Both the position numbers and the translations under genes were made by a program. This document shows positions 33,920-54,686 of a DNA stretch of 64,000 bases, in pieces. The stretch comes from Gemmatimonadota bacterium (lineage in GTDB: Bacteria > Gemmatimonadota > Gemmatimonadetes > Gemmatimonadales > GWC2-71-9). The notes below the pieces were generated by a model. It saw nothing but the letters and a program-made list of their open reading frames with translations, searched no databases and had not been told where the DNA came from. Location of the stretch: the NCBI GenBank assembly GCA_016720805.1, contig JADKJZ010000002.1, positions 213,617-277,616 of the forward strand, read 5' to 3'. Positions within the stretch are counted from its first letter, which is position 1. Each line of letters begins with the position of its first letter.

Positions 33920-33920
33920 A

Positions 33921-35414: not shown

Positions 35415-35415
35415 T

Positions 35416-36627
35416 ATGCTGATCGGCGAGACGATTCGAGTCGCGTTGGCCTCGATCCGGGCCAACAAGCTGCGGGCCCTGCTGACCATGCTCGGCGTGA
35501 TCATCGGCGTCGCGGCAGTCATCACCGTCGTGGCGATGGGGACCGGGGCGCAGAAGGCCGTCGAGGACAAGATCAACTCGCTCGGCGCCTCGCTGGTGCA
35601 GATCAACGCCGGCCAGGGGATGAACCGCGGCGTGGCGACGCAGGATCGCGCGGCATTGCTCGTGGCCGACTACGAGGCGCTGCGGCGTGACGCGACGACG
35701 CTGAGCGAGGTCGTCCCGGAGCTGCAGAAGAACCAGCAGGTCCAGCTGGTGTCGACGAACATCAACACCTCGATCGTCGGCACCACGGCCAACTATCCCA
35801 AGGCGCGGAACTACACCATCACCACCGGCCGGATGTTCACCGATGGCGATGATGCGGCGCGGCAGCTCTATGCCGTCGTCGGCTCCGACGTGCCGAAGAT
35901 GCTGAACGTCAACGCGGGCGCCATCATCGGCCAGCAGATCCTGATCCGGAAGCTGCGCTTCGAGGTCATCGGCGTGCTGTCGTCGAAGGGCTCGCAGGGG
36001 TGGCAGAATCCGGACGAGCAGATCCTGATCCCGCTGAACACCGCGCGCTACCGCGTCTTCGGCACCGACCGGCTCCGCTCGATCGCCGTCGTCGTCCGCG
36101 ACAAGGTGCCGATGGAGCAGGGGATGGTCGAGGCCGAGCGGATCATGCGCCGCGAGCACAAGATCCGCCCGGGCGCCGACAACAACTTCCAGATCGTCTC
36201 GCCGAAGGAGTTCCTCGCGACGCAGCAGCAGACGTCCGAGACCTTCTCGCTCCTGCTCCTCGCGATCGCCGGCGTCTCGCTGCTGGTCGGCGGCATCGGC
36301 ATCATGAACATCATGCTGGTCTCGGTCACCGAGCGCACCAAGGAGATCGGCATCCGGAAGGCGCTCGGTGCCACCAAGTTCACGATCATGGGCCAGTTCC
36401 TGATCGAGGCGCTGGTGCTCTGCCTCGCCGGCGGTCTCGTCGGCATCCTGCTCGGCTGGGGCGCCTCGTCGATCGTCTCGCAGAAGCTCGGCTGGAGCAC
36501 GGTGATCTCGCCGGTCGCCGTCGGCGTCGCCTTCGCCTTCTCGGCGCTGGTCGGCCTCTTCTTCGGCCTCTGGCCGGCGCGGCGCGCCGCGAGCCTCGAT
36601 CCGATCCAGGCGTTGCGGTACGAGTAA
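35416..36627 (+). CDS. ABC transporter permease (MacB/FtsX-type)
   Basis: MLIGETIRVALASIRANKLRALLTMLGVIIGVAAVI, a large periplasmic loop, and a C-terminal FtsX-like 3-TM bundle. Confidence 0.85.
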   Translation: MLIGETIRVALASIRANKLRALLTMLGVIIGVAAVITVVAMGTGAQKAVEDKINSLGASLVQINAGQGMNRGVATQDRAALLVADYEALRRDATTLSEVVPELQKNQQVQLVSTNINTSIVGTTANYPKARNYTITTGRMFTDGDDAARQLYAVVGSDVPKMLNVNAGAIIGQQILIRKLRFEVIGVLSSKGSQGWQNPDEQILIPLNTARYRVFGTDRLRSIAVVVRDKVPMEQGMVEAERIMRREHKIRPGADNNFQIVSPKEFLATQQQTSETFSLLLLAIAGVSLLVGGIGIMNIMLVSVTERTKEIGIRKALGATKFTIMGQFLIEALVLCLAGGLVGILLGWGASSIVSQKLGWSTVISPVAVGVAFAFSALVGLFFGLWPARRAASLDPIQALRYE

Positions 36628-36636
36628 TCGGCGATC

Positions 36637-36721
36637 AGCGAACAGCGAACAGCGAACGGCGGTGTCGAGGGAAGATCTCCTCCCGACACCGCCGTTCGCC
36701 GTTCGCCGTCCGCCGTTCGCT
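36637..36721. repeat. Heptamer-array hairpin element, unit AGCGAAC / GTTCGCC
   Basis: Three agcgaac units (36637-36657). Core hairpin ggcggtgtcgagg..cccgacaccgcc. Four gttcgcc-like units (36694-36721). Confidence 0.85.
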
Positions 36722-36737
36722 CCACTATCTTCGCCCC

Positions 36738-39047
36738 ATGAAATTCCTCCTCCCCGCCGCCCTGCTGCTCCCCGCGCTGCTCCCGGCGCAGTCCCCGACC
36801 CATGCCGTGACGCCACCACGGGTCGAGGCCGAGGTGGTGATCGACGGCCGTCTGGATGAGGCGGTCTGGCGGCAGGCGACCCGGCTCGATGGTTTTCATC
36901 AGTTCCAGCCGGTGGACTCGCGCCCGGCCGAAGACTCGACGGTGGTGCTGGTCTGGTACTCGCCCACGGCGATCCACTTCGGCGTCCTGGCCTACGACCG
37001 GGTCCCTGAAGGGGTGCGGGCCACCGTCTCCGACCGCGACAACATCGGCAGCGACGATCAGGTCACCGTCTTCCTCGACACCTTCAACGACCGTCGCCGT
37101 GCCTACTTCTTCGGCGTGAACCCCTACGGCATCCAGGACGATGGGGTCAGGAGCGAGGGCGGCTTTTCCACCAGCAGTGGCATGTCGGGGAGCACCGACC
37201 GCAATCCCGATTTCCTCTGGCAGAGCAAGGGGATGAAGACGGACTTCGGCTGGGTGGCCGAGATTCGCGTCCCCTTCAAGTCGTTGCGCTGGGGTGGCGG
37301 GGAGATGCTGACGTGGGGACTCAACGTGCAGCGCACGACGCGCCGCACGGGGTACGACGACACCTGGACCGATGTTCGCCGCGCCAGCGCCTCGTTTCTC
37401 GGGCAGGCTGGTACGATCACCGGGATCCATGACATCAAGCGCGGGGTCGTCACCGAACTCCAGCCGACGCTGACGGCGGAACTGCCGGGGACCAGGTCGT
37501 CGAACGGCAGCTTTGACCGCGGCGACGTGCGCACCGAAATCGGCGGCAACTTCCGGCTGGGCTTCACGCAGGTGACACTCGACGGCACCATCAATCCGGA
37601 CTTCTCGCAGGTCGAGTCCGACGCCGGGCTGGTGACGATCAACGAACGCTTCGCCCTCTTCTTCCCGGAGCGGCGCCCCTTCTTCCTCGAGGGGATCGAA
37701 CTCTTCGCCTCGCCGAACAACCTGGTCTACACCCGCACCGTGGCGAATCCGCTCGCAGGCGGCAAGGTGACCGGCAAGTACGGCGCGTGGACGGTCGCCC
37801 ATTTGACGGCGCTCGACGAGTTCGGCGCGGCGCGTGACGGCAGCGCGACCGCCGACACGCGCAGTCTCGCGAATCTGACCCGACTGCGCCGCGATGTCGG
37901 CGACAACTCCGTGGCCGGGATCACCCTCACCAACCGGGACGAGGATGGCCATCACAATCGGGTCATCTCCGCCGACACGCGGATCGTCTTCAACAAGCTC
38001 TACTACTTCCAGGGGCAGCTGGGCGCGTCGTTCACCAAGGACGACCGCTCCGACAAGTTCCGTTCCGATCCGCTCTGGGATCTCGAGGTCGACCGCACCG
38101 GCCGCGCCTTCGGCTTCAACTACAAGATCACCGCGATTGGCAATGACTTCGAGACGTGGAGCGGCTTCGTCAATCGGACCGGCATCGCGACGGCGCGCGC
38201 CTTCAATCGCTACTCGGTCTACGGCTCGCGCGGCGCGCTGGTCGAGCAGGCGACCGTGTTCGGCGGCATCTCGCGGATCTACCGCTACAGCGAACTCGGC
38301 GGCAAGGCACTCGAGGGCGGCCAGGAGCTGAACGCCTCGATGCGGCTCCGCGGCGGATGGAATCTGAGCAGCCGGGGCGAACTGGCCTTTGTGCGCTTCG
38401 ATCCTGCCGCGTATGCCAACTACACGGTCGATCGAACCACTGTCGGCCTTGGCGCCGTCCCGCAGCCGTTCCCGCTTTCCTCCGGCATCTACGATGCGCT
38501 TGGCGCCTCCCTGTCGATCTCCACGCCGACCTGGCGGCTCTGGCAGGGCTCGCTGCGTGTCGAGCGCGGTACCAAGGCGATCTTCCCCGAAGCCGCCGAG
38601 GCGCGCGGAACGTCGGCCACGGCGTCGATCACCATGCGCCCGTCGCCGGCAGTGCGCGTCTTCGGGACGCTCGCGGTGCAGAAGCTCGAACGGAAGCGTG
38701 ACGGCAGCGAGTTTGCGCGCACGGTCCTGCCGCGCCTCAAGGTCGAGGTGCAGCCGAACCGGTCGCTCTTCTTCCGCATGGTGGGGGAGTACCGCAGCGA
38801 ACGGCAGTCGATGCTGATCGATCCCGTCTCCGGGGATCCCATCCTGATCAACGGCAGCGCCTCGCCTGCTCGGCAGACCGACCGCCTCCGCGTCGACTGG
38901 CTCGCGTCCTACGAGCCGACGCCCGGCACCGTCGCCTTCCTCGGCTACGGCTCGACGCTGCGCGGCGACCGGCCGCTGACCTTCCGCGCGCTGGAGCGGA
39001 CGGAGGATGGATTGTTTGTGAAGGTGGCGTATTTGTTCAGAAGGTGA
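36738..39047 (+). CDS. Secreted CBM9-like / DUF5916 family protein (putative outer-membrane barrel)
   Basis: ATG 36738 gives MKFLLPAALLLPALLPAQS. VIDGRLDEAVWRQA..F.QFQP is typical of CBM9-like N-domains. Long beta-rich C-terminus ending ..VKVAYLFRR. Confidence 0.7.
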   Translation: MKFLLPAALLLPALLPAQSPTHAVTPPRVEAEVVIDGRLDEAVWRQATRLDGFHQFQPVDSRPAEDSTVVLVWYSPTAIHFGVLAYDRVPEGVRATVSDRDNIGSDDQVTVFLDTFNDRRRAYFFGVNPYGIQDDGVRSEGGFSTSSGMSGSTDRNPDFLWQSKGMKTDFGWVAEIRVPFKSLRWGGGEMLTWGLNVQRTTRRTGYDDTWTDVRRASASFLGQAGTITGIHDIKRGVVTELQPTLTAELPGTRSSNGSFDRGDVRTEIGGNFRLGFTQVTLDGTINPDFSQVESDAGLVTINERFALFFPERRPFFLEGIELFASPNNLVYTRTVANPLAGGKVTGKYGAWTVAHLTALDEFGAARDGSATADTRSLANLTRLRRDVGDNSVAGITLTNRDEDGHHNRVISADTRIVFNKLYYFQGQLGASFTKDDRSDKFRSDPLWDLEVDRTGRAFGFNYKITAIGNDFETWSGFVNRTGIATARAFNRYSVYGSRGALVEQATVFGGISRIYRYSELGGKALEGGQELNASMRLRGGWNLSSRGELAFVRFDPAAYANYTVDRTTVGLGAVPQPFPLSSGIYDALGASLSISTPTWRLWQGSLRVERGTKAIFPEAAEARGTSATASITMRPSPAVRVFGTLAVQKLERKRDGSEFARTVLPRLKVEVQPNRSLFFRMVGEYRSERQSMLIDPVSGDPILINGSASPARQTDRLRVDWLASYEPTPGTVAFLGYGSTLRGDRPLTFRALERTEDGLFVKVAYLFRR

Positions 39048-39145
39048 ACGGTAAGCGGCAAGACGTGAGACGTAAGAGGTGAAACGGGTGCCCCACTGAC
39101 TCCGTTTCACCTTTTACGTTTCACGGCCGTTGTTCACCGTTCACC
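39043..39145. repeat. Heptamer-array hairpin element, GGTGAAC-related degenerate units
   Basis: Left arm 39043-39087 (ggtgaac ggtaagc ggcaaga cgtgaga cgtaaga ggtgaaa). Right arm 39102-39145. Spans both convergent stop codons (39047 and 39141). Confidence 0.75.
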
Positions 39146-39599
39146 CCTTCGCTCTCGTCCCCGTAATCGGCTGGGCCCCACCCATGTCGAGGTTCAGCCC
39201 CTCGATGTTCCGTTCGAGCGTTCCCTTCAGCGTGTCGCCGTCGACCTCGAAGCGATAGGTGCTGATCGAGGTCCGCACCATCTCCTCGCCATTCATGTTC
39301 ATCTTCGCCTCGCCGATGGAGACGAAGGTCACCGCGCCAGCGGTGAGCTTGGCGGCGACCCGCTTGGCCGGGCGCTCCGGCTGGCCTTCGATCGGGTCGT
39401 TCTTCAGCATCCCGATGATCGAATCGCCGACCACCGAGAAGGCGAAGCTCCCCTTGGCCATGATGGCGGTGGGGCCCTCGGGGCCGATCCGCATCCCGGC
39501 GGGGACGGTCACGTTCCACGTCCCGACGAGGGGATGGGACTGGGCGGCGAGGGCGCCCGGGAGGAGGAGGAGGGCGGCAAGCAGCAGGGGACGACGCAT
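39141..39599 (-). CDS. Secreted hypothetical protein
   Basis: ATG 39599 gives MRRPLLLAALLLLPGALAAQS. 152 aa, beta-rich. Confidence 0.55.
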   Translation of the reverse strand: MRRPLLLAALLLLPGALAAQSHPLVGTWNVTVPAGMRIGPEGPTAIMAKGSFAFSVVGDSIIGMLKNDPIEGQPERPAKRVAAKLTAGAVTFVSIGEAKMNMNGEEMVRTSISTYRFEVDGDTLKGTLERNIEGLNLDMGGAQPITGTRAKG

Positions 39600-39625
39600 G
39601 GCGAGGCAGCTCCGGTAAGAAGAGG

Positions 39626-41200
39626 ATGGGCGACTCCCCGAAGGATGCACGGCCGGGGCACACAGTCGCGTTATCGGCCGGTCAGACGTCTCCATCAGAC
39701 GATGGAGCGTCGGACATGTGCCGCGCCCCCCACTCGGGACGCCGGACTATCTTGCGAAGCCTGCGCCAGAGGCGACGGGGGAGACATGTCGGCGCACCGC
39801 TGACCGCCATTTCCCGCTACCCGCCACCCGAGGTCGCTGTCATCAATATCACCTTCCCGCCGCGCTTTCTGGCGCGGCTTTTCCGGTCGCCGGATGGGCA
39901 GGACGAGATGCTCGCCGGGCCGATCCGCGGCGAGCTGCTGGGGAGCGAGCACCTCGCGGCCCGGGTTCGTGATGCGGCCCGTGCCCAGCGACTGACCAAG
40001 GCCCGCCGTCCGCGCACGACACCCCGCCTCCTCGCGCGCCTCGACGACACGCGCCACATTCTCGACGACGCGCATGCTCGGCTGATGACCGTCGCCGACG
40101 ACGTCGACATCTCTCCCGCCGGCGAATGGCTGCTCGACAATTATCACGTCGTGCAGGAGCAGATGCGCGAGGTGCGCACCACGCTGCCACGCGGGTACTA
40201 CCGTGAGCTGCCCGAACTCGCGAGTGGCCCGCTGGCGGGCTATCCGCGCGTTTACGAGCTGGCGATCCTCCTGATTTCGCACAGCGAGGGGCGGCTCGAC
40301 GCCGAGAACATCGCGCTCGTGCTGGGTGCCTTCCAGGAGGCAACCCCGCTGGCGATCGGCGAGCTCTGGGCCATCCCCGCGATGCTCCGCCTCGGCCTGC
40401 TGGAGAGCGTGCGCCGCATGGCGCTCCGGACGGTGCAGCGTCTCGACGAGATCGGCGGCGCCGATGCGTGGGTGGCGCGGATCCTTGCCGCTGACGAGGA
40501 ACGCCCCGAGGCCCTCCGCGAAGTACTGGGCGAATTCGTCGCCGAACCCCCGGTGCTCTCGGCCGTCTTCATCTCGCGCCTCCTGCGCCAGCTTCGCGCG
40601 AGCCGCGGCGCGTTTCCGCCGCTGGCCCGCCTGGAGGCGTGGATCGGCGATCACGGCCTCCCCGCCGAGGAGGCCGACGCTCAGGCGACGCAGCGGCTGG
40701 CGCTCACGCAGTTGATGATGGCCAACAGCATCACCTCGATGCGGGCGATTGCGCAGATCAACTGGCGCGACCTGGTCGAGCAGCAGAGCGTGATGGATGC
40801 CGTGCTGCGCGGCGATCCGTCGGGCGACTATCCGCGGATGACCTTCGCCACGCGCGACTGGTATCGCCACGAAGTGGAGCGGATCGCGAAGCGAACGAGG
40901 CTGCGCGAGGAGGTGGTGGCGGCGCACGCCATCGCCCTGGCCGAGCAGGCGGAGTCCGGCGCGGCCGATGACTGCCGCCGGCACGTGGGCTACTACCTCG
41001 TCGATCACGGCTGGCGTCACCTGGTCGAGCGCACCGGGTACCGGGCCGGCCCCCGGGAGGCGTTGCATCGCTGGGTCTGCCGCCATCCGACGGCGGTGTT
41101 CGCCAGCGGCCTCGTGGCCGCCGCGTGTGCCGCCGTGGCCGCGGTCCTCTGGCTGGCGGAGCCCGCCGCGCACCCGACTGGCCCGTGCTCGTCCTGCTGA
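39626..41200 (+). CDS. cgs fragment 1 (N-terminal cytoplasmic region); true start uncertain
   Basis: The homology-like sequence begins about ..FLARLFRSPDGQDEMLAGPIRGELL. In-frame ATGs at 39716 and 39908. An ATG at 39786 lies one base out of frame. Confidence 0.6.
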   Translation: MGDSPKDARPGHTVALSAGQTSPSDDGASDMCRAPHSGRRTILRSLRQRRRGRHVGAPLTAISRYPPPEVAVINITFPPRFLARLFRSPDGQDEMLAGPIRGELLGSEHLAARVRDAARAQRLTKARRPRTTPRLLARLDDTRHILDDAHARLMTVADDVDISPAGEWLLDNYHVVQEQMREVRTTLPRGYYRELPELASGPLAGYPRVYELAILLISHSEGRLDAENIALVLGAFQEATPLAIGELWAIPAMLRLGLLESVRRMALRTVQRLDEIGGADAWVARILAADEERPEALREVLGEFVAEPPVLSAVFISRLLRQLRASRGAFPPLARLEAWIGDHGLPAEEADAQATQRLALTQLMMANSITSMRAIAQINWRDLVEQQSVMDAVLRGDPSGDYPRMTFATRDWYRHEVERIAKRTRLREEVVAAHAIALAEQAESGAADDCRRHVGYYLVDHGWRHLVERTGYRAGPREALHRWVCRHPTAVFASGLVAAACAAVAAVLWLAEPAAHPTGPCSSC

Positions 41201-44200
41201 CCCTGCTGCCGGCGATCGATGTCGCCGTGAACGCGCTCAATCAGCTCGTCACGGCGGTCCTGCCGCCGCGGGTCCTCGCGAAGCTCGACTTCCGCGAACA
41301 CGGCATTCCCGACGGCTGCCGCACCGCGGTGGTGATTCCCACCCTCTTCGACAGCGTCGCCGCGGTCGAGGACGCGCTGGAGAATCTCGAGGTGCAGTTC
41401 CTGGCCAATCGCGAATCGAACCTCCACTTCGCGCTGCTGAGCGACTTCACCGATGCGGCCACGGAAGTGGTCGACGGCGACACCGCGATCGTGGACGCGG
41501 CGACCGCGGGGATCCGCCGTCTCAACGCGCGCTACGCGCCCGACACCGAGGACGCCTGCTACCTCCTCCATCGCCCCCGCCAGTGGAACGCGGCCCAGGG
41601 CGTCTGGATGGGATGGGAACGAAAGCGCGGCAAGCTTGGCGATTTCAATCGCTTCGTCCGTGGCGACGACCATGGCGCCTTCAGCGAGACGATCGGCAAC
41701 ATGATGGCGCTGCGGCAGGTGCAATACGTCATCACGCTCGATGCCGACACGATGCTGCCGCCGGACGCCGCCCCGCTCCTCATCGGGACACTGGCGCATC
41801 CACTCAACCGCGCGGTGTACGACGCCGACCGCGGCCGGGTCGTGCGCGGCTACGGCATCCTGCAGCCGCGCGTCGCCGTGTCCCTGCCGAGCGCGCACGC
41901 GTCGCACTTCGCCGCGATCCACTCGGGACATCCCGGCGTCGACCCGTACACGACCGCCGTGTCGGACGTGTACCAGGATCTCTATGGCGAGGGTTCCTTC
42001 ACCGGGAAGGGGATCTACGACCTCGACATCTTCGAGCGGGCGACCGGCAGCCGCTTCCCCGAGAACACGTTGCTCTCGCACGACCTGATCGAGGGGAACC
42101 ACGCCCGCGCGGGGCTGGTCACCGACATCACGGTCTACGACGACTACCCGACACGATACCTGACCTGGACGCGTCGCAAGCACCGGTGGATCCGCGGCGA
42201 CTGGCAGCTGCTCTCCTGGTTGCGCCGTTGGGTACCGAGCCCCGGAGGCCGCGAACGAAACCGCCTCCCCTGGCTGTCGCGCTGGAAGATCGTCGACAAC
42301 CTTCGCCGCAGCATCGTCGAGATTGCCTTGCTCGTGATGCTCATCGTGGGATGGGCGGTGGTGCCGGTCACGCCGCTCCGCTGGACGCTGCTCGCCCTCG
42401 GCGCGATCGCGGCCCCCTGGCTCATGGCACTGCTGCTGGCCGCCCTGCGCCCACCGCTCGATGCCTCGTGGCGGGCCTACTATGGCGCGGTTGGTCGCGA
42501 CGCACTGACCTCGCTGCAACAGCTGGCGATCGCGGTGGCCGTCCTGCCGCACCAGGCCTGGACCTCAGTCGATGCGATCGGGCGCACGCTCTACCGGCTC
42601 GGCATCTCGCACCGCTTCCTCCTTCAGTGGCAGACCGCGTCCCAGGCGGAGCAGGGCACGGCCGACAGCCTCGATGCCACTTGGCGCGCCATGGCGCCCG
42701 CCCTGACCGCCACCGCCGCCCTCGTCGCGCTCGCCGCGTGGGTGGCGATCCGACACGGCGTGGACGGCACGGCCCTGGTGGTCGGCATTGTTCCGCTGCT
42801 GCTCCTCTGGGCCGCGGCGCCGGTGGCCACTTGGCGGTTGAGCGCGACGCAACACGTCGAACCGCAGCTTCGGCCAAGCGACCGTCCCGATCTGGAGCGC
42901 TATGCCGCGCTGCACTGGGCGTACTTCGAGCGCTTCGTCACGGCCGAGACCCACTGGCTGGTGCCCGACAATTTCCAGGACGATCCGGAACCGGCGATCG
43001 CCATGCGGACGTCGCCAACCAACATCGGCCTGCAACTGCTCGCGACGGTGAGCGCGCACGAGCTCGGCCTCATCTCCCTCGAGGTGATGACGGGCCGGCT
43101 CGAGGCGACGTTCGCCTCGCTCCGGGAGATGGCGCGCTATCGTGGCCACTTCTACAACTGGTACGATCTCCACACGCTCACGGTCCTGCCGCCGGCGTAC
43201 ATCTCGACGGTCGACAGCGGAAACTTCGCGGGGCACCTGGTGGCGCTCCGGCAGGGCTGCCTCGCCCTCGCCGGCACAGGTGACTGTCAGGCGCGGCTCG
43301 AGGCGATCGCCGAGCAGGCCTACGGCTTCGCGATGGCGATGGAGTTCGGCTTCCTGTACGACAAGGAGCGGCAGCTTCTGTCGATCGGCTATCAGGAAGG
43401 GAGTCATGCACTCGATCCGTCGTCGTACGACTTGCTCGCCTCCGAGGCACGCCTCGCCTCTTTCTTCGCCATCGCCAAGAATGACGTCCCGGTGGAGCAC
43501 TGGTTCCGCCTCGGACGGACGCTCACCCGCGCGTCGGGAGCGACCGCGCTGGTCTCGTGGAGCGGGAGCATGTTCGAGTACCTGATGCCGTCGCTGGTGA
43601 TGCGCGCGTTCCCGTCGACGCTGCTGGACCAGAGCTGTCGTGGCGCCGTGGCCAGGCAGGTCGCCCACGGGGCGTCGCACGGCGTCCCCTGGGGAATCAG
43701 CGAGAGCGCCTACAACCTCCGCGACCGGCACTTCATCTACCAGTACCGTGCCTTCGGCGTTCCCGACCTGGCCCTCAAGCGCGGGCTTGGTCGCGACCTG
43801 GTCGTCGCGCCCTACGCGTCGGCGCTCGCGATGCAGGTGGACGCGCCGCGCGCGCTGGCCAATCTTCGTCTCCTCGAGCGCGAGGGGGCGATCGGCCGAT
43901 ACGGCTTCCGGGATGCCATCGATTACACCCGTCCCGTTCCCGGCGAGCGACTCGCGGTGGTGCAGTCATTCATGGCGCACCACGTGGGGATGGGCCTGGT
44001 CGCCTTCACCAACGTGCTGCGCGGCGACGTCTGGCAACGGCGCTTCCACGCCGACCCGCTCGTGCAGGGGGCCGAGCTCCTGCTGCACGAACGGATTCCG
44101 CGGCGCGTCGCGCTGCAGCCCACGCAGTCGGCGCAAACCGCCGAGGCCAGGCCAGCGGCCGACGCCGACCGGCCGTCGATCCGGACCATCACCGACCCCG

Positions 44201-45084
44201 ACCTCGGCCCGCCGCGCGTGGCGCTGCTCGGGCGGCTTCCGTACACCATCATGGTCAGCAGCGGGGGGGGTGGCTACAGCCGCTACGAGGCGCTGGCCGT
44301 GACGCGCTGGCGCGCGGATGCCACGCGCGACGCGACCGGGCAGTTCTGCTACCTGCGGGATCTCACGACCGATCGGCGCTGGTCGGCGACGCACCAGCCG
44401 ATGTGCATCCCCGCGGACTGGAGCCACGCGACCCTTGCCAGCGACCGCGTCACCTTCCATCGTGGCGATGGCGACATCGAGAGTCGTACTGAGATCGCGG
44501 TCGTGCCGGACGACTCGGCCGAAGTGCGCCGGGTGACGCTGACCAACCACGGCGACGTGCCGCATGAGATCGAGCTGACGAGCTACGGGGAGATCGTCCT
44601 GGCACCGGGCGCCTCCGATCGGGCACACCCGGCGTTCTCCTCGCTCTTCGTCCAGACGGAATGGCATCCCTGGTGCAGCGCCATCACCGCGACGCGCCGC
44701 CCGCGCGCGGCAACCGATGCGGTGCACTGGTGCGTCCACGTGGTGGCGACCAGTGCCGAGCAGGTCGGCACCGTCAGTTGCGAGAGTGATCGGGCGCGCT
44801 TCCTCGGGCGTGGCCGCACGCTGCGCGACCCGGCGGCACTCGCAGGTCGATGGTCCGCTCTCAGGGGACCACCGGCCCGGTGCTCGACCCGGTCTTCGCC
44901 ATTCGGATCCGGATCCGGCTGGCGCCCGGGCAGTCCGGCTCGGTGGCCTTCACCACCCTGGTCGCGACCACCCGCGCACGCGCCTTCGAGCTGGCGGGTC
45001 GCTATCACGATCCACACGCCGCGCAACGCGCCCTCGACCTGGCGTGGACCTCGACACAGGCCGAATTGCGCGAGTTGCAGGTGA
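41125..45084 (+). CDS. cgs fragment 2 (TM, GT84 glycosyltransferase and central domain)
   Basis: The meaningful sequence runs from about DWPVLVLLTLLPAIDV (41175) to ..FLGRGRTLRDPAAL (about 44850). The tail to 45084 is out-of-frame read-through. Confidence 0.7.
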   Translation: MCRRGRGPLAGGARRAPDWPVLVLLTLLPAIDVAVNALNQLVTAVLPPRVLAKLDFREHGIPDGCRTAVVIPTLFDSVAAVEDALENLEVQFLANRESNLHFALLSDFTDAATEVVDGDTAIVDAATAGIRRLNARYAPDTEDACYLLHRPRQWNAAQGVWMGWERKRGKLGDFNRFVRGDDHGAFSETIGNMMALRQVQYVITLDADTMLPPDAAPLLIGTLAHPLNRAVYDADRGRVVRGYGILQPRVAVSLPSAHASHFAAIHSGHPGVDPYTTAVSDVYQDLYGEGSFTGKGIYDLDIFERATGSRFPENTLLSHDLIEGNHARAGLVTDITVYDDYPTRYLTWTRRKHRWIRGDWQLLSWLRRWVPSPGGRERNRLPWLSRWKIVDNLRRSIVEIALLVMLIVGWAVVPVTPLRWTLLALGAIAAPWLMALLLAALRPPLDASWRAYYGAVGRDALTSLQQLAIAVAVLPHQAWTSVDAIGRTLYRLGISHRFLLQWQTASQAEQGTADSLDATWRAMAPALTATAALVALAAWVAIRHGVDGTALVVGIVPLLLLWAAAPVATWRLSATQHVEPQLRPSDRPDLERYAALHWAYFERFVTAETHWLVPDNFQDDPEPAIAMRTSPTNIGLQLLATVSAHELGLISLEVMTGRLEATFASLREMARYRGHFYNWYDLHTLTVLPPAYISTVDSGNFAGHLVALRQGCLALAGTGDCQARLEAIAEQAYGFAMAMEFGFLYDKERQLLSIGYQEGSHALDPSSYDLLASEARLASFFAIAKNDVPVEHWFRLGRTLTRASGATALVSWSGSMFEYLMPSLVMRAFPSTLLDQSCRGAVARQVAHGASHGVPWGISESAYNLRDRHFIYQYRAFGVPDLALKRGLGRDLVVAPYASALAMQVDAPRALANLRLLEREGAIGRYGFRDAIDYTRPVPGERLAVVQSFMAHHVGMGLVAFTNVLRGDVWQRRFHADPLVQGAELLLHERIPRRVALQPTQSAQTAEARPAADADRPSIRTITDPDLGPPRVALLGRLPYTIMVSSGGGGYSRYEALAVTRWRADATRDATGQFCYLRDLTTDRRWSATHQPMCIPADWSHATLASDRVTFHRGDGDIESRTEIAVVPDDSAEVRRVTLTNHGDVPHEIELTSYGEIVLAPGASDRAHPAFSSLFVQTEWHPWCSAITATRRPRAATDAVHWCVHVVATSAEQVGTVSCESDRARFLGRGRTLRDPAALAGRWSALRGPPARCSTRSSPFGSGSGWRPGSPARWPSPPWSRPPAHAPSSWRVAITIHTPRNAPSTWRGPRHRPNCASCR

Positions 45085-48000
45085 CCCCGCTCGCAGCATC
45101 CCTCTTCCAGGACCTGGCTGGGCACCTGCTCTACTCGACGGGCCAATTTCGGGCGCCGCAGGAGGAGCTCTTCCGCAGTCGCGGGTCGCAGCCACTCCTC
45201 TGGGCTCATGGCATCTCGGGGGATTGGCCCATTCTCCTCGCGATCATCGATGGCGACGAGGGGATGTCCACCCTGCGCGAACTCCTCGCGGCACACCACT
45301 ACTGGCGCCGACGCGGCATGATGGTCGACCTCGTGGTGCTGAACGCGCAAGCGTCCACCTACCTGCAGGCGGTCAACGACAGCATCACGGCGATGATGTT
45401 CTCGCTCGGTGAGGCCACCGTGCTCGATCGTCCGGGCGGCGTCTTCCTGCGGCGCGCCGACCAACTTGGCGCCGACGACCTCCTGATGCTGCGCACCACC
45501 GCGCGCGTGCTGATCACATGCGATGGTCGGTCGCTCGAGACGATCCTTCGTGACGGCACCACCGAGGCGCAGGCCACGCCGACCGCCGAACCGGAACGGC
45601 GGGCTCCGGCGCCTCGTTCCTCCACCCAGCGTGCCTCGCGCGGGAGCCGGATGCGGCAATGGCTCGGCGTGCCGATGTCGGGGGCCGTGGCGCCAGTGCC
45701 GGCGGTCCGGCCCGCCGAGCGGGCGGGCGCCCTGCCATCGCGCGGTGCTGCTGGTCCGCCGCTGCAGCTGGACAACGGCTTCGGCGGCCTCACCGCGCAG
45801 CACGACTACCAGATTCGCGTCCAGGGCGACGACCTGCCGCCGGCGCCCTGGGTCAACGTGGTCGCCAATCCGCTGGGTGGCTTCGTCGTCAGCGAGCGAG
45901 GCGCCGGCTTCACCTGGGCCGGCAACAGCTACTTCTATCGCCTCACGCCTTGGCACAATGACCCGGTCAGCGACCCGATCAGTGATGTGCTCTACCTCCG
46001 CGACGAGGAGAGCGGCGACCTCTGGAGTGCGACGCCGGCGCCGGTCGGCGACGACATCGCCTACGTGGTGCGGCATGCGCCGGGGCGGTCGGTCTTCCAG
46101 CACGAGCACCGGGACATCAGTACCGAACTGACCCTTGGCATGGTCGAGGGAACCTCGGTCCGGGTGTCGCGTCTCCGCCTGACCAACACCGGGACGGTGT
46201 CCCGCCGTCTCTCGGTCACGGCGTATGTCGAGTGGACTCTCGGCGTGCGGCGTGAGCAGACGCAGCACCACGTGCGCACGGAATTCGTTCCGGCGCTCAA
46301 CGCGATCCTGGCGCGCAACCCCTTCGATCCGCAGTTCGCCGATCAGGTCGCGTTCTGTGCACTGGGTGATACGGCGGTCTCGCACACCGGCGATCGGCGG
46401 GCCTTCCTCGGGCCCAATGGCACTGTGGCCCATCCCGCTGCCCTCGCCGGGCGCCCGGGCACTGGCCCCGCCCTGGATGGCCGGACTGGCGCCGGCATGG
46501 ACCCGTGCGCCGCGCTGCAGTGCGTGATCACGCTGGCACCCGGCGAAACGCGGGAGATCGTGAAGTTGCTCGGCGCGACTGGCAGCGAGGCGGAGGCGCG
46601 CGCCGCTGTCGGGACCTGGGCCACGACCACCGCAGCCAACGATGCCCTTGGCCTCGCCGACGCCACCTGGGCGGCGCGACTCTCCGTGGTGACGGTTGCC
46701 ACGCCGGAGCCCTCGTTCGACGCGTTGCTCAACCGCTGGCTGCTCTATCAGACGCTGGCCTGTCGACTCTGGGCGCGGTCGGCGCTGTACCAGAGTGGTG
46801 GCGCGTACGGATTCCGCGACCAGCTGCAGGATGTGATGGCACTGGTCTACGCCGAGCCAGCCATCGCGCGGGAGCACATCCTGCGGGCGGCGGCGCGGCA
46901 ATTCGTGGAGGGCGACGTCCAGCACTGGTGGCACGCGGAGAGTGGCCGGGGGACCAGGACGCGCTTCTCGGACGACCTCGCCTGGCTTCCGTACGTCGTC
47001 GATCACTATGTCCGCGTGACTGGCGACCGCGCGGTGCTCGACGAGATGGTGCCGTTCCTCACCATGCGCGCGCTGGAACCGCACGAGGACGAGCTGTACG
47101 ATCAGCCGAGAATCAGCCGGGAGGTCGCCAGCGTCTACGAGCACTGCCTGCGGGCCATCCGCAAGGCCGCCACCCAGGGGCCGCACGGCCTGCCGCTCAT
47201 CGGCTCGGGCGACTGGAATGACGGGATGAGCCGAGTCGGTGTCGGGGGAACCGGGGAGAGCATCTGGCTTGGCTGGTTCCTGGTCACGGTCGCCCGGGGC
47301 TTCGCCGCGCACGCCGACGCGCGCCAGGACCACGTGGCAGCCGCGATGCTCCGCACGCAGGCCACCGCATACGTCGAGGCGGTTGAACTGCATGGCTGGG
47401 ATGGCGACTGGTATCGGCGTGCCTACTTCGATGACGGCACCCCGCTCGGCTCGGCCAGCAACGAGGAATGTCGCATCGATGCCATTGCGCAGAGCTGGAG
47501 CGTGCTCTCGGGTGCGGCGCGGCCGGAGCGTCAGGCCAGGGCGATGCGGGCCCTCGAAGAACAGCTGGTGCGCGAGGACGGCCGCTTGATCATGCTGCTC
47601 ACCCCGCCGTTCGATCGCGGCACCAGCGACCCCGGATACATCAAGGGGTACCTGCCGGGGGTGCGCGAGAACGGGGCGCAATACACCCATGCGGCGCTCT
47701 GGGCGGTACTTGCCGTGGCGGAACAGGGCCGCGGCGCGCGCGCCTTCGAACTCTTCCAGATGCTCAACCCGCTGATGCATGCACGGACGCCGGAGGAGGT
47801 CGCGACCTACAAGGTCGAGCCGTACGTCGTGGCGGCTGATGTCTATACGGTGGCCGGACAGCTCGGTCGCGGAGGATGGACCTGGTACACCGGCGCGGCG
47901 AGCTGGATGTACCGCGTCGGCCTCGAAGGGATCCTCGGTTTCCGGAAGCGTGGCAACGCCTTCACGATCATGCCGACGGCGCCACCCGCCTGGCCCGTGT

Positions 48001-48200
48001 ACTCCATCGACTACCGCTTCGGCGCGAGCCACTACCACATCGAGGTGCGGAATCCCGAGGCGCTGGTGTCGGGCCACATGCGCATCACCGTGGATGGCGC
48101 GCCGGTCGAGGGCGGCGAGGTGCCGTTGATCGATGACGGGCGGACGCGGCAGGTAGTCGCGATCCGAGAGCCGGGGCGGACGGCTACCGTCTTCGGCTGA
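44850..48200 (+). CDS. cgs fragment 3 (GH94 phosphorylase-like C-terminal domain)
   Basis: ..TTGPVLDPVFAIRIR.., and GGAYGFRDQLQD and GSGDWNDG motifs typical of GH94. Confidence 0.7.
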   Translation: MVRSQGTTGPVLDPVFAIRIRIRLAPGQSGSVAFTTLVATTRARAFELAGRYHDPHAAQRALDLAWTSTQAELRELQVTPLAASLFQDLAGHLLYSTGQFRAPQEELFRSRGSQPLLWAHGISGDWPILLAIIDGDEGMSTLRELLAAHHYWRRRGMMVDLVVLNAQASTYLQAVNDSITAMMFSLGEATVLDRPGGVFLRRADQLGADDLLMLRTTARVLITCDGRSLETILRDGTTEAQATPTAEPERRAPAPRSSTQRASRGSRMRQWLGVPMSGAVAPVPAVRPAERAGALPSRGAAGPPLQLDNGFGGLTAQHDYQIRVQGDDLPPAPWVNVVANPLGGFVVSERGAGFTWAGNSYFYRLTPWHNDPVSDPISDVLYLRDEESGDLWSATPAPVGDDIAYVVRHAPGRSVFQHEHRDISTELTLGMVEGTSVRVSRLRLTNTGTVSRRLSVTAYVEWTLGVRREQTQHHVRTEFVPALNAILARNPFDPQFADQVAFCALGDTAVSHTGDRRAFLGPNGTVAHPAALAGRPGTGPALDGRTGAGMDPCAALQCVITLAPGETREIVKLLGATGSEAEARAAVGTWATTTAANDALGLADATWAARLSVVTVATPEPSFDALLNRWLLYQTLACRLWARSALYQSGGAYGFRDQLQDVMALVYAEPAIAREHILRAAARQFVEGDVQHWWHAESGRGTRTRFSDDLAWLPYVVDHYVRVTGDRAVLDEMVPFLTMRALEPHEDELYDQPRISREVASVYEHCLRAIRKAATQGPHGLPLIGSGDWNDGMSRVGVGGTGESIWLGWFLVTVARGFAAHADARQDHVAAAMLRTQATAYVEAVELHGWDGDWYRRAYFDDGTPLGSASNEECRIDAIAQSWSVLSGAARPERQARAMRALEEQLVREDGRLIMLLTPPFDRGTSDPGYIKGYLPGVRENGAQYTHAALWAVLAVAEQGRGARAFELFQMLNPLMHARTPEEVATYKVEPYVVAADVYTVAGQLGRGGWTWYTGAASWMYRVGLEGILGFRKRGNAFTIMPTAPPAWPVYSIDYRFGASHYHIEVRNPEALVSGHMRITVDGAPVEGGEVPLIDDGRTRQVVAIREPGRTATVFG

Positions 48201-49692
48201 CGATCGCCCGCCGCACCGCCTGCATCTCGGCATCGATTCCCGCCGCGATGTCGCGCGGCGTCGGCGTCACCTGGATGTCGGGCACCACGCCGGCGTCGGG
48301 CTGCGGGGTGGTCGGGAAGCCGGCGATGAGCGGGAGGTCGACCTCGAGCCCCGTCGTCGGCAACCGAAGGAAGAAGAAGGCGCCGCCATTGATGCCGCGA
48401 CGATTGCCGCCAGTTGGCTGCCCCACCAGGGTCGCGACACCGCTCTCCTTGACCGCCAGCGCGAACTGAAAGGTCGCCGAGGAATTGACGGCGCCGACGA
48501 GAACCCAGACGCGGCCACGATACCGTGTGGCAGCCGGGGCAATCACGTCGGCGCCGTCCTTGGTGTCGTCGAAGCGCACCAACCGATAGAACAGGGAGTC
48601 GACCGGACCGACAGCTGCCGCCCCCCAGTCGCGGAAGGAGGGATCCCAGGTGTCGAGGTACGGCGCGAGGTCGTCGGGCACACGGCGATAGCGCACGTGC
48701 CGCTGATAGATGGGCAACTGGAGCGGGATGTCGATCAACCGCGCGAGGATCTGATTGCCGGCATCGACGCCACCTTCATTGGCCCGCAGGTCAACCACGA
48801 GATCGGGAAGCTTGCGGGCCGTCGCGGCATCGAGCACCGAATCGAGCCAGCGCGTCCCATTCCACTTCGAATTGAAGGTGGCCCAGGTCGGCATCGTGAG
48901 CACCCCGATGCCATTCGCCTCTGCGTAGCGCCAGAGTGGGGCATCTTCGGCCGGTTCGGCGCTGCCACCACCCTGCGCGCGCCGCTCGACGGCGGTCAAC
49001 GCCGCCACAACCACGCGCCGCGTCGCCGTCGTGCCCGGTCGGCGCACCACCAGAGCGAAGCGCGGCTCCCGCACGGGAAAGACGAGTGGGTACAGCACAT
49101 CGAATGGTTGGAAGCGCTCCGGCCCCTGCACCTCGAGGTAGGCCACGCGCTTGGCGTCGTTGCCGCCATCCGCGCGCGCGAGCGGCATTAGTGAGTCGAG
49201 GATGGTGCGCGCGGGGACGCCGTTGATGGAGAGGATCTCGGTGCCGCGCGGCAGGTCGGCGTCGGGGGCGTGGTCCGCGGTGACGATCATCCGGCCTCCA
49301 AGCCACCGGAAGGCCACCGGCACCTTGTCCTGCCCCTCAAACAGAGCTTCCCGGATGGCCTTCGACTGGTTGTAGAAGTTCGGGTAACTGTGCCCGCACT
49401 GGATCGCGGCCGTCAATCGCGTCAGCGCGAGGAATGCCTCGGCCACCGTGCGGTCGGTGGCGAAGTACTGGTCGACCGCCTCGAACCGCCTGTCGACATC
49501 ATCGCGGGTGCGGTAGCGATAGAGGCCCGGGTGGAGCGTCTCGTACGCGCGTCGAAGCACGCCGAGGTCGGCACGGAGCGAGGCCGCGGCGAGCGGGGTG
49601 TCACGCCGGAGGGTGTCCCGTTGTGCCGGAAGCGGGCTGGCCGCCGCGATGCTGGCGGCCAGGATCAACGTCTGGGTGAGGCGAGACAGCAT
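48184..49692 (-). CDS. S41-family peptidase (tail-specific-protease-like), secreted
   Basis: ATG 49692 gives MLSRLTQTLILAASIAAASPLPAQ. LVGAVNSSATFQFA..VGQPTGGN resembles the S41 catalytic region. The longer track ORF (to 50178) overlaps other genes. Convergent 17-nt overlap with the cgs stop. Confidence 0.65.
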   Translation of the reverse strand: MLSRLTQTLILAASIAAASPLPAQRDTLRRDTPLAAASLRADLGVLRRAYETLHPGLYRYRTRDDVDRRFEAVDQYFATDRTVAEAFLALTRLTAAIQCGHSYPNFYNQSKAIREALFEGQDKVPVAFRWLGGRMIVTADHAPDADLPRGTEILSINGVPARTILDSLMPLARADGGNDAKRVAYLEVQGPERFQPFDVLYPLVFPVREPRFALVVRRPGTTATRRVVVAALTAVERRAQGGGSAEPAEDAPLWRYAEANGIGVLTMPTWATFNSKWNGTRWLDSVLDAATARKLPDLVVDLRANEGGVDAGNQILARLIDIPLQLPIYQRHVRYRRVPDDLAPYLDTWDPSFRDWGAAAVGPVDSLFYRLVRFDDTKDGADVIAPAATRYRGRVWVLVGAVNSSATFQFALAVKESGVATLVGQPTGGNRRGINGGAFFFLRLPTTGLEVDLPLIAGFPTTPQPDAGVVPDIQVTPTPRDIAAGIDAEMQAVRRAIVSRRR

Positions 49693-49778
49693 CAGGGGGG
49701 CTCCAGGGGGAGGGGTGCTCCCTGACGGTTCGCCATGGAGGTCGCGATGGATGCAGGATGGCCGGTGGGCCAACCCAA

Positions 49779-50120
49779 TCAGATGTCGCGGTCCTCCCAG
49801 TCGACCTTCTTCATCAGGTGGTGGACCCCGGGGGCGAGCAGCAGGCCGGTCACGGCGATCACCACCAGACCGCAATAAAGGGCGTAGATCCCCGCGAAGA
49901 GCTTGCCGGATTCCGAGAGCTGCACGGCCACCGGCCCCATCCCGCCGAGCAGCATCGCGCTGTTGAGGAAGGCGTCGAGCCAGCTCATCCCCTCGAAGTG
50001 TCGGTAGCCTACCATGCCGATCACCAGCGAGAAGGCGAGCGGCGAACGACACGACGAGTGCAGCAGTTGTCGCCGGAAGAAGCGACGACGATTGGGCTGG
50101 GCGACGCCCGGCGCCGTCAT
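49779..50120 (-). CDS. Small membrane protein
   Basis: 113 aa, three hydrophobic segments (..GMSWLDAFLNSAMLLGGMGPV..). Confidence 0.5.
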   Translation of the reverse strand: MTAPGVAQPNRRRFFRRQLLHSSCRSPLAFSLVIGMVGYRHFEGMSWLDAFLNSAMLLGGMGPVAVQLSESGKLFAGIYALYCGLVVIAVTGLLLAPGVHHLMKKVDWEDRDI

Positions 50121-50139
50121 GTCCGCCGCCTCGCGACGA

Positions 50140-50752
50140 GGAGAAGCCGACCCCGCGCATCGTCTGCAGGAGCGGCACGCCGGCCGCTTCGTTCAGCTTG
50201 CGTGGAAGTGAATGTCCCAGACCTTCTCGAGCAGGGTGGTTCTTCGGATCACCTCTTCGGCGTGCAGCAGGAAGAACTCCAGCAGCTGGAACTCCTTCGG
50301 CGTGAGGTCGAGCGGGGTCCCATGGGCGGTCGCTCGATGCTGCAATCGATCCATTCCCACGCAGTCATACTGGAGCGCGTCGAGTCGCTGTGCGCCGCCT
50401 CGACGGGTCAGCGCCCGCAGCCGTGCGAGCAACTCGTCGAAGCGGAACGGCTTGGAGAGATAGTCATCCGCCCCGGCGTCGAGCCCGCGGACCACGTCCT
50501 CCGGGGCATCGCGGGAGGTGAGCATGAGGATCGGCGTGGTTCGGCCCTCCCGCCGCAGCTCGATCGCCACCTGGAAACCGTTCTTCTTCGGCAGCATCAC
50601 GTCGAGCAGGATCGCGTCTAGTCGCCCACATGGGCCAGCAGCGTGGCCTCCTCCCCATCGACCGCGACGTCCACCGTGTATCCCTCTTCCTCGAGGCCGT
50701 GCTTGATGAAGGAGGCAACCTTCCGCTCGTCTTCCACGACCAGCAGCTTCAT
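50140..50752 (-). pseudogene. OmpR-family response regulator, disrupted
   Basis: MKLLVVEDERK.. (ATG 50752, ggag SD). TAG at 50620-50618 where YDAILLDVMLP continues one base out of frame. GADDYLSKPF, wHTH ..LLEKVWD, then a missing block, and RKLNEAAGVPLLQTMRGVGFS in a third frame. Confidence 0.75.
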
Positions 50753-50768
50753 GAGTGGGTGCTCCAGG

Positions 50769-51975
50769 TCATGAGGACTTCCGGGCAATCGGAAGGTCGA
50801 GGTGGAAGAGCCCGGCGCCAGCGCGGGGCATCGTGTCGAGGTCCCCGCCCAGGAGGCGGGCCAATCGTCGCGAGAGCGGCAGCCCGAGCCCGACCCCTGT
50901 TTCTCCCCTTCGGCGGTGGTCACGACACGTCGAAGATCCGCTCGCCTCCTCCTCGCGGATGCCGGGGCCCTCATCCTCCACGAGATAGCGACCATCGCGC
51001 CCTCGGGGCGGACCGAGAGCCGCACCGGGTCCCGCGGGGCTGTACCTGATGGCGTTGGTCAACAGGTTCATCAGGATCTGTTCCACGCGGCTGGCGTCGG
51101 TCTCGATCGTGGGCAGGTCCTCCGCGAGCTCCATCGCCAGCCGGATCGACTTTGGCCTGGCGGCGGGTGTCGCCCGTCCGGCCGCACGGTGGGCCAGCGC
51201 GACGGCGTCGACCCGCCGAACGACCGGCTTGAGCCGATCCTCGTCGAGTCGGCTCAGGTCGAGGAGGTCGCTGATCAGGTCGATGGCCTGCTGGGCGGCG
51301 TCATACACCTCGAAGGCCTCGCGCGGAGCCGTCGCGCGATCCTGCTTGCGAACCAGCAGCTCGGACCAGCCATACACGGCGGCGAGGGCATTGCGCAATT
51401 CGTGGTTGACCATCGCGAAGAACCGCTCGCGGGTCCGTTGCAGGAGATGGACTTCGGCCAGCAGCTGCGCGCTCTCTTCGTGCAGGCGCGCGTTCTCGAC
51501 CGCCGCCGCCGACATGGCGGCGAGCAGGATGGCGACGTGCTCGTCATCGGCGGTGAACTGGCCGTTCCCCTGCTTCTCGGTGAGGTACAGATTGCCGATG
51601 ATGCCACGGCGGCCGGTGATCGGGACGCCGAGAAAGGAGTGCATGGGAGGGTGATGCGGGGGAAAGCCGTGGGAAGCGGGGTGGCGCACCAGATCGGGCA
51701 GGCGAATGGGGCGCCCCTCTCGCAGCAGGAGCCCGAGCACGCCATGCCCCACGGGAGGCGGGCCCATCGCCTCGCGTTCCTGGTCGCTGATGCCATGGGT
51801 GACGAACCGCTCGAGGACTCGACCATCCGGCGCCAGGACGCCGATGGCCGTGTAGCGCACCGATCACCTCGGCAGCGATCGCCACGACGCGGTGCAGCAC
51901 GCCGTCGAGTGACGCCTCCGAGGTCAGGGCGAGCCCGGCCAGGACCAGTCGCTCCAGTTGATCGTTTTCCGGCAT
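50769..51975 (-). pseudogene. GAF-domain sensor histidine kinase, disrupted
   Basis: MPENDQLERLVLAG..LDGVLHRVVAIAAEVIG (frame of ORF 51544-52089) continues as RYTAIGVLAPDG.. (ORF 50769-51860). H-box MVNHELRNAL, N-box NLLTNAIRYSP, G1 VEDEGPGI, G2 GLGLPLS. Segments between the boxes read better in other frames. Confidence 0.75.
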
Positions 51976-52964
51976 GGCAGGGGTGTTCGTGGGCGTCGCC
52001 TCCGTGAGTGTCTGGTGCCGACTGCCTTGTGCTGGCGATGAAGAAAGCTTCATCCCCGGCCCATCCTCCCTTCCCGTGCCACCGTGCACTTTTCCTGCGT
52101 GAACGTCTCCGTCTTACCCTTGCCGTGCGGGAGTCCCGAGATGTCGCTTCGCGATGGCGACGCAGCGACGGCAGGTTCAGGGCATCCACGCTCCGTCGAT
52201 GCCGGGCCGCGCTGGGGCTGGCGGAGCTTTGACCACCATCCGCGGCAATGGCACGAGGCCCTTCGCCACGCCCTCCCGACCGGGTGGGGTCAGATGCGAT
52301 CCGAAACCTATCTACTGTCGCGACGGTCCACGAGTCTGGTGAAGCTCCAGCAGGGCCGAGTGGACGTCAAACGGAGGATGGCGACGGAGCCAAACGGACT
52401 GGAAGCCTGGCAAACAGTGCGGCGGGTGGGGTTTCCGATCCCACCCGAGGACATCGCGGCACTCTGCCGCTGCTGGCAGGTCGACCCCCCAGGCCCGTCC
52501 CGGGTGATTGCGACGCTCGACGAGTTTCATGCCCTTCTGGCACAGCAGCTTCCCGAGGTGCACGTCCTTCCGGCCAGAAGCTGGTGGCGCGAGTATGGCC
52601 TGCTTGGGTGTCTGGTGCAGCGGCGCACAGTATTGGTGCGCGGGACCGTGCTCGAGATGCTGGCTGTCGAGCACCCGGAACTGGCCACCCTTCGCACCGC
52701 GCTGCAGGCGATGCAACTTACGGAGGGTGCCCACACCTCGTCCCGGACGGCGCTGCGGCAGTTGCTCGGTGGCCAACGCATGACGGTCACTGAGCGACGG
52801 CCCCGATCGCGCGAACCGGGAATGATTCGACGACTGATTCGGTCCCCATTCCGTGGCCGTGTTGGCGGTTGCCGATCACGCGTCCTTGGTAGTGATTGCA
52901 CACCGGCGCGTGAGTATCGCTTCCGTGGTGATGCTCGAATCACGCTGACCTCTGGGAGCCGCTC

Positions 52965-53589: not shown

Positions 53590-54088
53590 TGCTCGCCACG
53601 CTGATCGACACGCTCACCCGCTGGTGTGCGCCATGGCAGGCGTTCTATGCCGATTCCCGACTGACCGAGATCGCGGTCACTTCGGTGCACGTCGTGGCGA
53701 TGCTGGTGGCGGCGGCTTCGCCGTCGCGGCGGACCGACTCACGCTGCGCACGACGCGGCGCGAGACGGCCGACCGGATGGCGATGCTTGAGGAATTGCAG
53801 TCGGTGCACCGGCCGGTGAAGATCGGATTGGCGGCGCTGTTCGCGAGCGGCGTGGCGCTTGCGGCTTCCGATGTCGAGACCTTCTCGGCCTCGCCCGCGT
53901 TTCTGGTGAAACTGGCGTTGGTCGCGCTCCTCTCGGTCAACGGGCTGGTCATGTTGCGTGCCGAGCGGTTGCTCCGGCGCGATCCGACCGACGCGCGATG
54001 GGGAACGTTGCGCCGGGTCAGTTGGTTCTCGCTGATGCTCTGGATCAGCACCGCCGTCGTCGGGGTCGTGCTGGTCAATGCGGCGTGA
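53589..54088 (+). pseudogene. Four-TM membrane protein (possibly CopD-like), one frame change
   Basis: ATG 53589 overlaps the preceding TGA (TGATG). MLATLIDTLTRW..VTSVHVVAMLVA continues as GGFAVAADRLTLR.. in ORF 53624-54088. The switch is near 53700-53715. Confidence 0.6.
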
Positions 54089-54139
54089 GTGCGCTGCACC
54101 GACGTCGGTCCTCCACCATTGTCCTGCCCTGAGGTTGCC

Positions 54140-54668: not shown

Positions 54669-54686
54669 TCGGTATCGCGCGGCGCC

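Follow-up and report, generated by a model that had tools for sequence, protein, structure and literature searches.

The locus described here raises the question of whether a very large gene, which in the deposited genome of a Gemmatimonadota bacterium is spread over three reading frames, was broken by mutation or is interrupted only in the assembled sequence. The gene is located in the DNA stretch of 64,000 nucleotides that was analyzed (the window), which corresponds to positions 213617–277616 of contig C2 (JADKJZ010000002.1; 310 kb) of the metagenome-assembled genome (MAG) GCA_016720805.1, referred to below as G000; unless stated otherwise, all coordinates are window positions. The G000 assembly is 3.51 Mb in length, consists of 16 contigs and is 96.6% complete. 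A first-pass annotation of the window described three consecutive open reading frames (ORFs), with start positions modulo 3 of 2, 1, and 0, as parts of a homolog of the cyclic β-1,2-glucan synthase (Cgs/NdvB/ChvB), possessing an N-terminal region, transmembrane (TM) segments, a GT84 domain and a GH94 domain. The comparisons with related genomes and metagenomes that are reported below indicate that the locus encodes a Cgs homolog and that its split into three frames is, in all likelihood, an artefact of assembly or consensus calling.

Homology of the three ORFs to Cgs

The three ORFs and the succession of their frames were confirmed in the sequence, and the peptides that had been quoted at both junctions are present in the translations. 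All three are on the + strand: ORF1 (39626–41200; frame 2, 524 aa) encodes the Cgs N-terminal domain and the first TM segment (41093–41149), ORF2 (41125–45084; frame 1, 1319 aa) extends from TM2 to the first GH94 supersandwich, and ORF3 (44850–48200; frame 0, 1116 aa, with the stop codon at 48198–48200) contains the remainder of the GH94 phosphorylase region. The proposed homology and domain content were borne out by end-to-end alignment to 8RF0, the solved Cgs/NdvB of Agrobacterium tumefaciens. Residues 156–516 of ORF1 aligned with residues 80–435 of the 8RF0 chain (E 3e-41), residues 22–731 and 716–1239 of ORF2 with residues 443–1140 and 1242–1767, respectively (E 2e-299), and residues 7–1060 of ORF3 with residues 1776–2797 (E 3e-239); colinear similarity to the solved protein, with all of the pieces in order, was thus observed for chain residues 80–2797. 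Because only about 8 chain residues are left uncovered between adjacent pieces at each junction, the coding sequence is complete at the junctions.

The length class of this homolog (about 2800 aa in comparison to a chain of 2818 residues) and the order of its domains, viz. N-terminal domain, TM, GT84, TM, cyclase and GH94 phosphorylase, are also those of the A. tumefaciens enzyme. In ORF2, the GT84 glycosyltransferase domain (~41190–42330, + strand) is followed by TM3–6 (42313–42828, +), a GH189/GH144-like cyclase domain (~42890–44125, +), in which Pfam identifies the glucoamylase-like family PF10091 at residues 770–972 (E 5e-20), and the first GH94 supersandwich (residues 1030–1241 by Pfam, +). 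ORF3, on the same strand, contains a Rossmann-like insert that is part of the GH94 phosphorylase region, the second GH94 supersandwich (residues 331–575; PF06165, E 1e-82) and the GH94 catalytic domain (residues 607–1030; PF17167, E 6e-118). No Pfam domain was detected in ORF1, and NCBIfam assigned no family to ORF1, ORF2, ORF3 or the intact homologous protein of the related genome G015. Cgs proteins contain six TM helices. Six hydrophobic 19-mers, at 41093, 41173, 42313, 42388, 42694, and 42772, were identified by a Kyte–Doolittle scan of the homolog, and they flank its glycosyltransferase domain.

The functional residues that are named for the A. tumefaciens Cgs in the available portion of its description (PMC10901819) include, for the GT84 domain, D527, D624 and D626 (UDP-binding), D739 (catalytic base), and R773 of the RW motif, as well as the priming tyrosine Y694, which is present in an IF1-homology loop; S1101, D1104 and E1300 are given for the cyclase domain and D2393 and D2528 (catalytic acid) for the GH94 domain. 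The numbering of the 8RF0 chain is the same as that of this source, because D624 and D626 fall on TLDADT. Based upon the alignment and a script check, all 12 of the residues so named are kept in the present homolog. Those of the GT84 active site correspond to D107, D206, D208, D320, and R354–W355 of ORF2, and the priming tyrosine to ORF2 Y275 in GVDPYTTAVSDVYQD, which is aligned with GIDPYVFTVSDVYQD. The three cyclase residues are represented by S694, D697 and E774 of ORF2, and the two GH94 residues by D657 and D791 of ORF3. By homology to the A. tumefaciens enzyme, the tyrosine in the GT84 domain would be primed with glucan and the glucan elongated from UDP-glucose, while the GH94 phosphorylase domain would trim the chain length and the GH189-type cyclase domain would close the ring. 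The locus is a Cgs homolog with a putative function in cyclic β-1,2-glucan synthesis. All of the defining sequence features of Cgs that we tested were found, except an uninterrupted reading frame, which is precluded in the deposited window by three indels and is present in 13 related genomes and in contigs from four metagenomes.

The indels in comparison to relatives and metagenomes

Open frames of 2769–3024 codons for this protein are present in 13 relatives belonging to the same genus or order. In G015 the gene forms a single open frame of 2911 codons, with 99% identity, and in G010, another relative, one of 2818 codons, with 88% identity. When positions 38001–50000 of the window were aligned as DNA to G015 (99.09% identity), exactly three frame-changing indels were found inside the gene. 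At junction 1, which falls within the short loop connecting TM1 to TM2, one G is missing from the window (41176–41177, + strand; CCCGAC vs CCCGGAC). At junction 2, the window has one extra C at 44841 (CACTCGCAGG vs CACTGCAGG), beyond which the frame of ORF2 departs from that of the gene, and an extra A preceding a four-G run at 44863 (CTCTCAGGGG vs CTCTCGGGG), both likewise on the + strand. At each site, the second of these forms is that of G015 as well as of the four metagenomes. A deletion/insertion pair relative to G015 at 45516/45518 is self-compensating and equals a codon substitution. The suspicion in the first-pass annotation that junction 2 comprises two closely spaced events proved correct, there being two +1 events 22 nt apart, and the reading of the G015 protein at this place (..DPAALQVDGPLSGTTGPVLDPVF..) explains why the segment GPLSG had been noted there in the third frame. 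Its statement that each junction behaves like a net loss of one base applies in full to junction 1, which lacks one G, whereas junction 2 agrees with it in frame arithmetic but physically gains two bases. Beside junction 1, the nine nucleotides at 41182–41190 contain six substitutions, the encoded residues being PVL for the window, FIV for G015 as well as for each of the four metagenomes, and RLL for G010; either the beginning of TM2 is variable at this spot or the consensus is locally faulty.

The stretch was found to be present, at 0.60–0.88 of its sampled words, in 20 sequencing runs from eight studies of activated-sludge, wastewater or freshwater metagenomes. Logan contigs from four runs of four studies (X1, X5, X7, and X13; activated sludge and wastewater) were placed on positions 31000–50500, where they are about 99.5% identical to the window. 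In all four of these runs the unbroken version was observed at all three sites, with a G inserted behind 41175 and one base absent at both 44841 and 44863, and the window's version of any of the three indels was seen in no contig of the four runs. The contigs containing the extra G behind 41175 and those lacking the extra base at 44841 account for full depth in every one of the runs, and those lacking the extra base at 44863 for full depth in three runs and for 5.45 of 19.1 in X7. Over 39573–48576, alignment of the X1 contigs to the window shows 48 letter differences and exactly 3 gaps. Restoration of one ORF by resequencing had been named in the first-pass annotation as the mark of an artefact, and this is in substance what the contigs of the four independent runs provide, although they do not derive from the reads of the MAG itself. 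Exact scans of the metagenome contigs of the Joint Genome Institute (JGI) for junction 2 yielded 0 matches to the window version and 0 to the intact G015 version; neither form occurs in these contigs, and a collection from which the population is absent is uninformative on the split.

The substitutions in the gene also bear upon this question. In comparison to G015 over 2907 codons, the differences at the three codon positions number 15, 12, and 50, respectively, and the ratio of nonsynonymous to synonymous differences per site (pN/pS) is 0.15; of the nonsynonymous differences, which number 23, 9 are located 5' of every plausible start. With G010 as the outgroup, the changes derived in the window comprise 2 nonsynonymous and 9 synonymous ones. 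This substitution pattern is that of a working gene, and the small number of nonsynonymous changes argues against a death of the gene long enough ago for three frameshifts to have occurred, since many such changes would then be expected.

A further frameshift had been proposed at the N terminus, where an ATG at 39786 was taken as the best start and found to be one base out of frame. No such frameshift is present, because the window has no indel relative to G015 between 39485 and 41177 and the X1 contig over 39573–42149 shows one gap only. Inside the leader region of cgs, this out-of-frame ATG opens a 5-codon ORF reading MSAHR-stop (39786–39803, + strand), which may be a leader peptide or due to chance. 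A G-rich, Shine–Dalgarno-like run (GGGGGAGA) is located directly 5' of it, and the segment made up of the run and the ORF (39776–39803) is identical in G015. The candidates for an in-frame start are TTG 39752 and ATG 39908, of which the second is preceded by AGGA at a distance of 5 nt; the true start of cgs is probably one of these two, and the sequence upstream of them is probably noncoding. The G010 protein begins with MPPRLLARLF, downstream of 39786, and a hidden Markov model (HMM) of codon usage that we constructed places the beginning of coding at about 39838.

Indels, mosaic structure and the origin of the split

The cgs gene is not the only one in this region that is interrupted. In a three-way tblastn comparison of the window, G015 and G010, the window was found to have five ORFs, cgs included, that are interrupted when compared with each of the two relatives. 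Besides cgs, these are of 283 aa (split at ~50621–50630), 219 aa (53506–53510), 192 aa (54253–54255), and ~890 aa (56542–56569, with two more breaks vs G010); some more ORFs are interrupted in comparison to just one of the relatives, and the gene for a GAF histidine kinase is also broken by indels in comparison to G010. Positions 50202–64000 are 97.1% identical to G010, yet their alignment has 54 gap events, with bases missing from the window in 32 of them and extra bases in 22; most are 1–2 nt deletions, and seven 1-nt deletions vs G010 are found within 50619–51034 alone. In a genome-wide census of frameshift-like junctions made with the codon HMM, which detects both of the cgs junctions (at 41176 and 44845), 18 of the 22 junctions on contig C2 fell within its last 65 kb (245–310 kb of the contig, i.e., from 31.4 kb of the window to past the window end), and the bin at 270–300 kb of C2 had 10 of them, the maximum in the genome. 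Other local maxima were observed at the starts of contigs C12, C6, and C14. The G015 sequence in turn has private extra bases at 31417, 31765, 32646–32933, 33789, and 37414, where gapless metagenome contigs agree with the window. Relative to the window and G010, its genes for a TolC-like outer-membrane efflux protein (OEP) and a DUF5916 protein are broken by these bases (L015/L016/L012, G015:C3). The private indels of G015 indicate that single-base changes of this kind are common to these low-contig MAGs.

The window is also a mosaic with respect to its nearest relative. Within 1–31 kb, it exhibits 73–95% identity to G015 and 86–98% to G010, whose contig reaches only from ~8.4 kb. The block 31000–50202, inside which the whole of cgs is located, is 97–100% identical to G015, and the block 50203–64000 is 95–99% identical to G010 and 76–93% to G015, the alignment of which ends at 61246. 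The nearest relative thus switches at ~31 kb and again, sharply, at 50202, and the metagenome contigs of X5, X7, and X13 depart from the window at 50202–50206, remaining G015-like. Either the metagenome assembly is chimeric here or different species have recently recombined.

Based upon these results, the split of cgs into three frames is very probably an artefact: the missing base at 41177 and the extra ones at 44841 and 44863 would be consensus errors that remained in a contig end which is poorly resolved and probably chimeric, and we infer that they are errors rather than mutations. The explanation that competes with this is a real and very recent pseudogene, in which three independent single-base mutations, perhaps after recombination of the 31–50 kb block from a G015-like species, led to the loss of the cyclic glucan. 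A number of observations weigh against an artefact, and several of them would accord with a pseudogene. The indels stand in the deposited sequence and none of them is located at a long homopolymer (their contexts are GG to G, C within CTGCAG, and A before GGGG), and the rpoB gene of G000 is intact. The comparison was made with other metagenomes and not with the MAG's own reads, the best run holding 0.88 of the words, and Logan contigs lose rare variants, so that a minor broken allele would go unseen. Furthermore, all four runs have the G015-type letters at 41182–41190, and the exact haplotype of the window is absent from them; the runs thus sample other haplotypes or strains, and junction 1 was not probed in its own haplotype. 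Frameshift-like junctions are also no more frequent in G000 (166/1642, or 4.7 per 100 kb) than in 400 kb of the control genome G033, a relative (18/127, or 4.5 per 100 kb), so that the assembly is not bad throughout; because this HMM background equals the G000 rate, a genome-wide excess cannot be shown, and only the clustering on C2 is usable. Lastly, 10 of 24 genomes of the genus gave no match to ORF2, which would suit a dispensable gene, although this count comes from a stricter first look and many of the genomes are incomplete. The substitution pattern described above, which is one of strong purifying selection with only two window-derived nonsynonymous changes, the retention of all catalytic residues and the unbroken version in four of four metagenomes speak against a pseudogene, as does the abundance of 1–2 nt indels in unrelated neighboring genes, which would require the simultaneous decay of 30–65 kb in a genome that is 96.6% complete. 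We therefore consider a pseudogene unlikely. The probability is similarly low that the frameshifts are real in the wider sense that a block of ~19 kb carrying cgs has recombined from a sister species into a wastewater Gemmatimonadota strain and is now at an early stage of pseudogenization, the contig end being a true interspecies mosaic.

The sharp switches of nearest relative at ~31 kb and 50202, and the failure of the contigs of three runs to cross 50202–50206 with the window, are also compatible with a chimeric join without base errors, in which the contig end would have been assembled from reads of populations that occur together and resemble G015 and G010, the indels being true minor alleles of these populations fixed by chance in the consensus. 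This is very improbable, as plain consensus error is more likely than minor frameshifted alleles at three sites in cgs and at dozens in the genes that follow, and none of the three alleles was found in any metagenome contig compared. We also considered programmed frameshifting and a natural division of the enzyme into three working polypeptides, for which it can be said only that the three frames succeed each other without loss of sequence. Both were rejected and are hardly credible: the orthologs with 99% and 88% identity each consist of one frame, no slippery run was seen at the sites, and the junctions cut through the protein, one dividing TM1 from TM2 and the other interrupting the first GH94 supersandwich. 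In addition, the truncated proteins Cgs1-1540/1587 and Cgs1-1846 are described as inactive in the available text of PMC10901819.

Gene neighborhood, distribution and comparison with known enzymes

The genes adjoining cgs are ordinary ones. Upstream of it are a MacAB/TolC-type efflux set, a DUF5916 protein and a small uncharacterized gene on the − strand, and downstream, on the − strand, are an S41 peptidase and the GAF histidine kinase. The efflux set forms a MacAB-TolC-like operon at 31731–36627, which consists of an outer-membrane factor (OEP), an ABC ATPase, an HlyD-type adaptor and a MacB/FtsX permease. The closest named relatives of the G000 rpoB are MAGs assigned to Gemmatimonadota, Gemmatimonadales and Gemmatimonas, with 63–82% identity, one further Gemmatimonadota MAG showing 58%; its identity to other phyla is 62% at most.

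The distribution of the gene was examined by a search with ORF2 over 41 genomes from the same genus or order, and because a stricter first look was used, the resulting counts represent a floor. Matches were found in at least 25 of the 41 genomes (G000 included), and within the genus in at least 15 of 24, a tally that includes the unpublished genome G024. The genus also holds a second group of Cgs sequences (G017, G002, G009, G011, G020, G024, and G003), with 46–50% identity to ORF2, beside the group with 58–99% identity; full-length frames in the second group reach 2994–3024 codons. When the GH94 third of the protein was compared with a collection of species genomes, relatives were encoded by at least 599 of the best 600 candidate stretches. 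Among the matches listed, the best named ones were Gemmatimonadales MAGs with 59–64% identity, and relatives were present in Acidobacteriota, Chloroflexota, Proteobacteria, Verrucomicrobiota, Planctomycetota, Bacillota and one Methanotrichaceae MAG. In the literature on Gemmatimonadota and cyclic glucan synthase, of which the matches were inspected in part, no paper on Cgs in this phylum was found. The first-pass annotation had considered the copy to be of interest for its genomic background, Cgs being best known from host-associated Alphaproteobacteria. This is not sustained by the results, since relatives occur in many phyla, full frames are present in 13 genomes of the genus and order, and a Thermoanaerobacter Cgs has already been characterized, as stated in the available text of PMC10834661; the Gemmatimonadota background is thus not unusual.

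Apart from the shared length and domain order, several differences from the A. tumefaciens Cgs are evident. The present host is an activated-sludge Gemmatimonadota and not a host-associated alphaproteobacterium, the deposited window sequence contains three single-base indels, and the homolog in the window is known from sequence alone. No equivalog of the ChvA/Cgt-type exporter was found in G000 or adjoining cgs: in this 96.6% complete genome the model TIGR01192 detected generic ABC exporters only, the best with 292.3 bits against a cut-off of 585.4, a cut-off that was also reached by none of 14 control genomes. The cyclase domain shows strong similarity to the GH189 cyclization domain of the Thermoanaerobacter italicus CGS (8WY1; PMC10834661), residues 720–996 of ORF2 aligning with chain residues 299–577 (E 1e-115), although only the cyclase domain of that enzyme has been solved. 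Its catalytic residues include E1442, according to the available text of the same source, and the match shows that Cgs enzymes outside the Alphaproteobacteria have already been characterized. The C-terminal 780 residues of the homolog, with supersandwich and catalytic domain, are likewise similar to the GH94 phosphorylases acting as cellobiose, chitobiose or 1,2-β-oligoglucan phosphorylases (e.g., 1V7V and 2CQS; E 1e-74 to 1e-69). However, those enzymes are free-standing proteins of ~800 aa, whereas here a giant membrane synthase carries the GH94 domain as its C-terminal module, which follows a second, degenerate supersandwich.

The results for this locus call for caution in the use of low-contig MAGs, in which single-base indels and chimeric joins can be concentrated in local patches that imitate pseudogenes and "split" giant genes. 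With respect to the enzyme family, Gemmatimonadota and many other free-living phyla commonly have predicted full-length Cgs proteins whose catalytic residues are intact. As Cgs is thus common in free-living phyla, cyclic β-1,2-glucans, for which a general role was already implied by the characterized Thermoanaerobacter enzyme, so that there is little biological novelty in this respect, are probably a general envelope or osmotic adaptation and not only a factor in host interaction.

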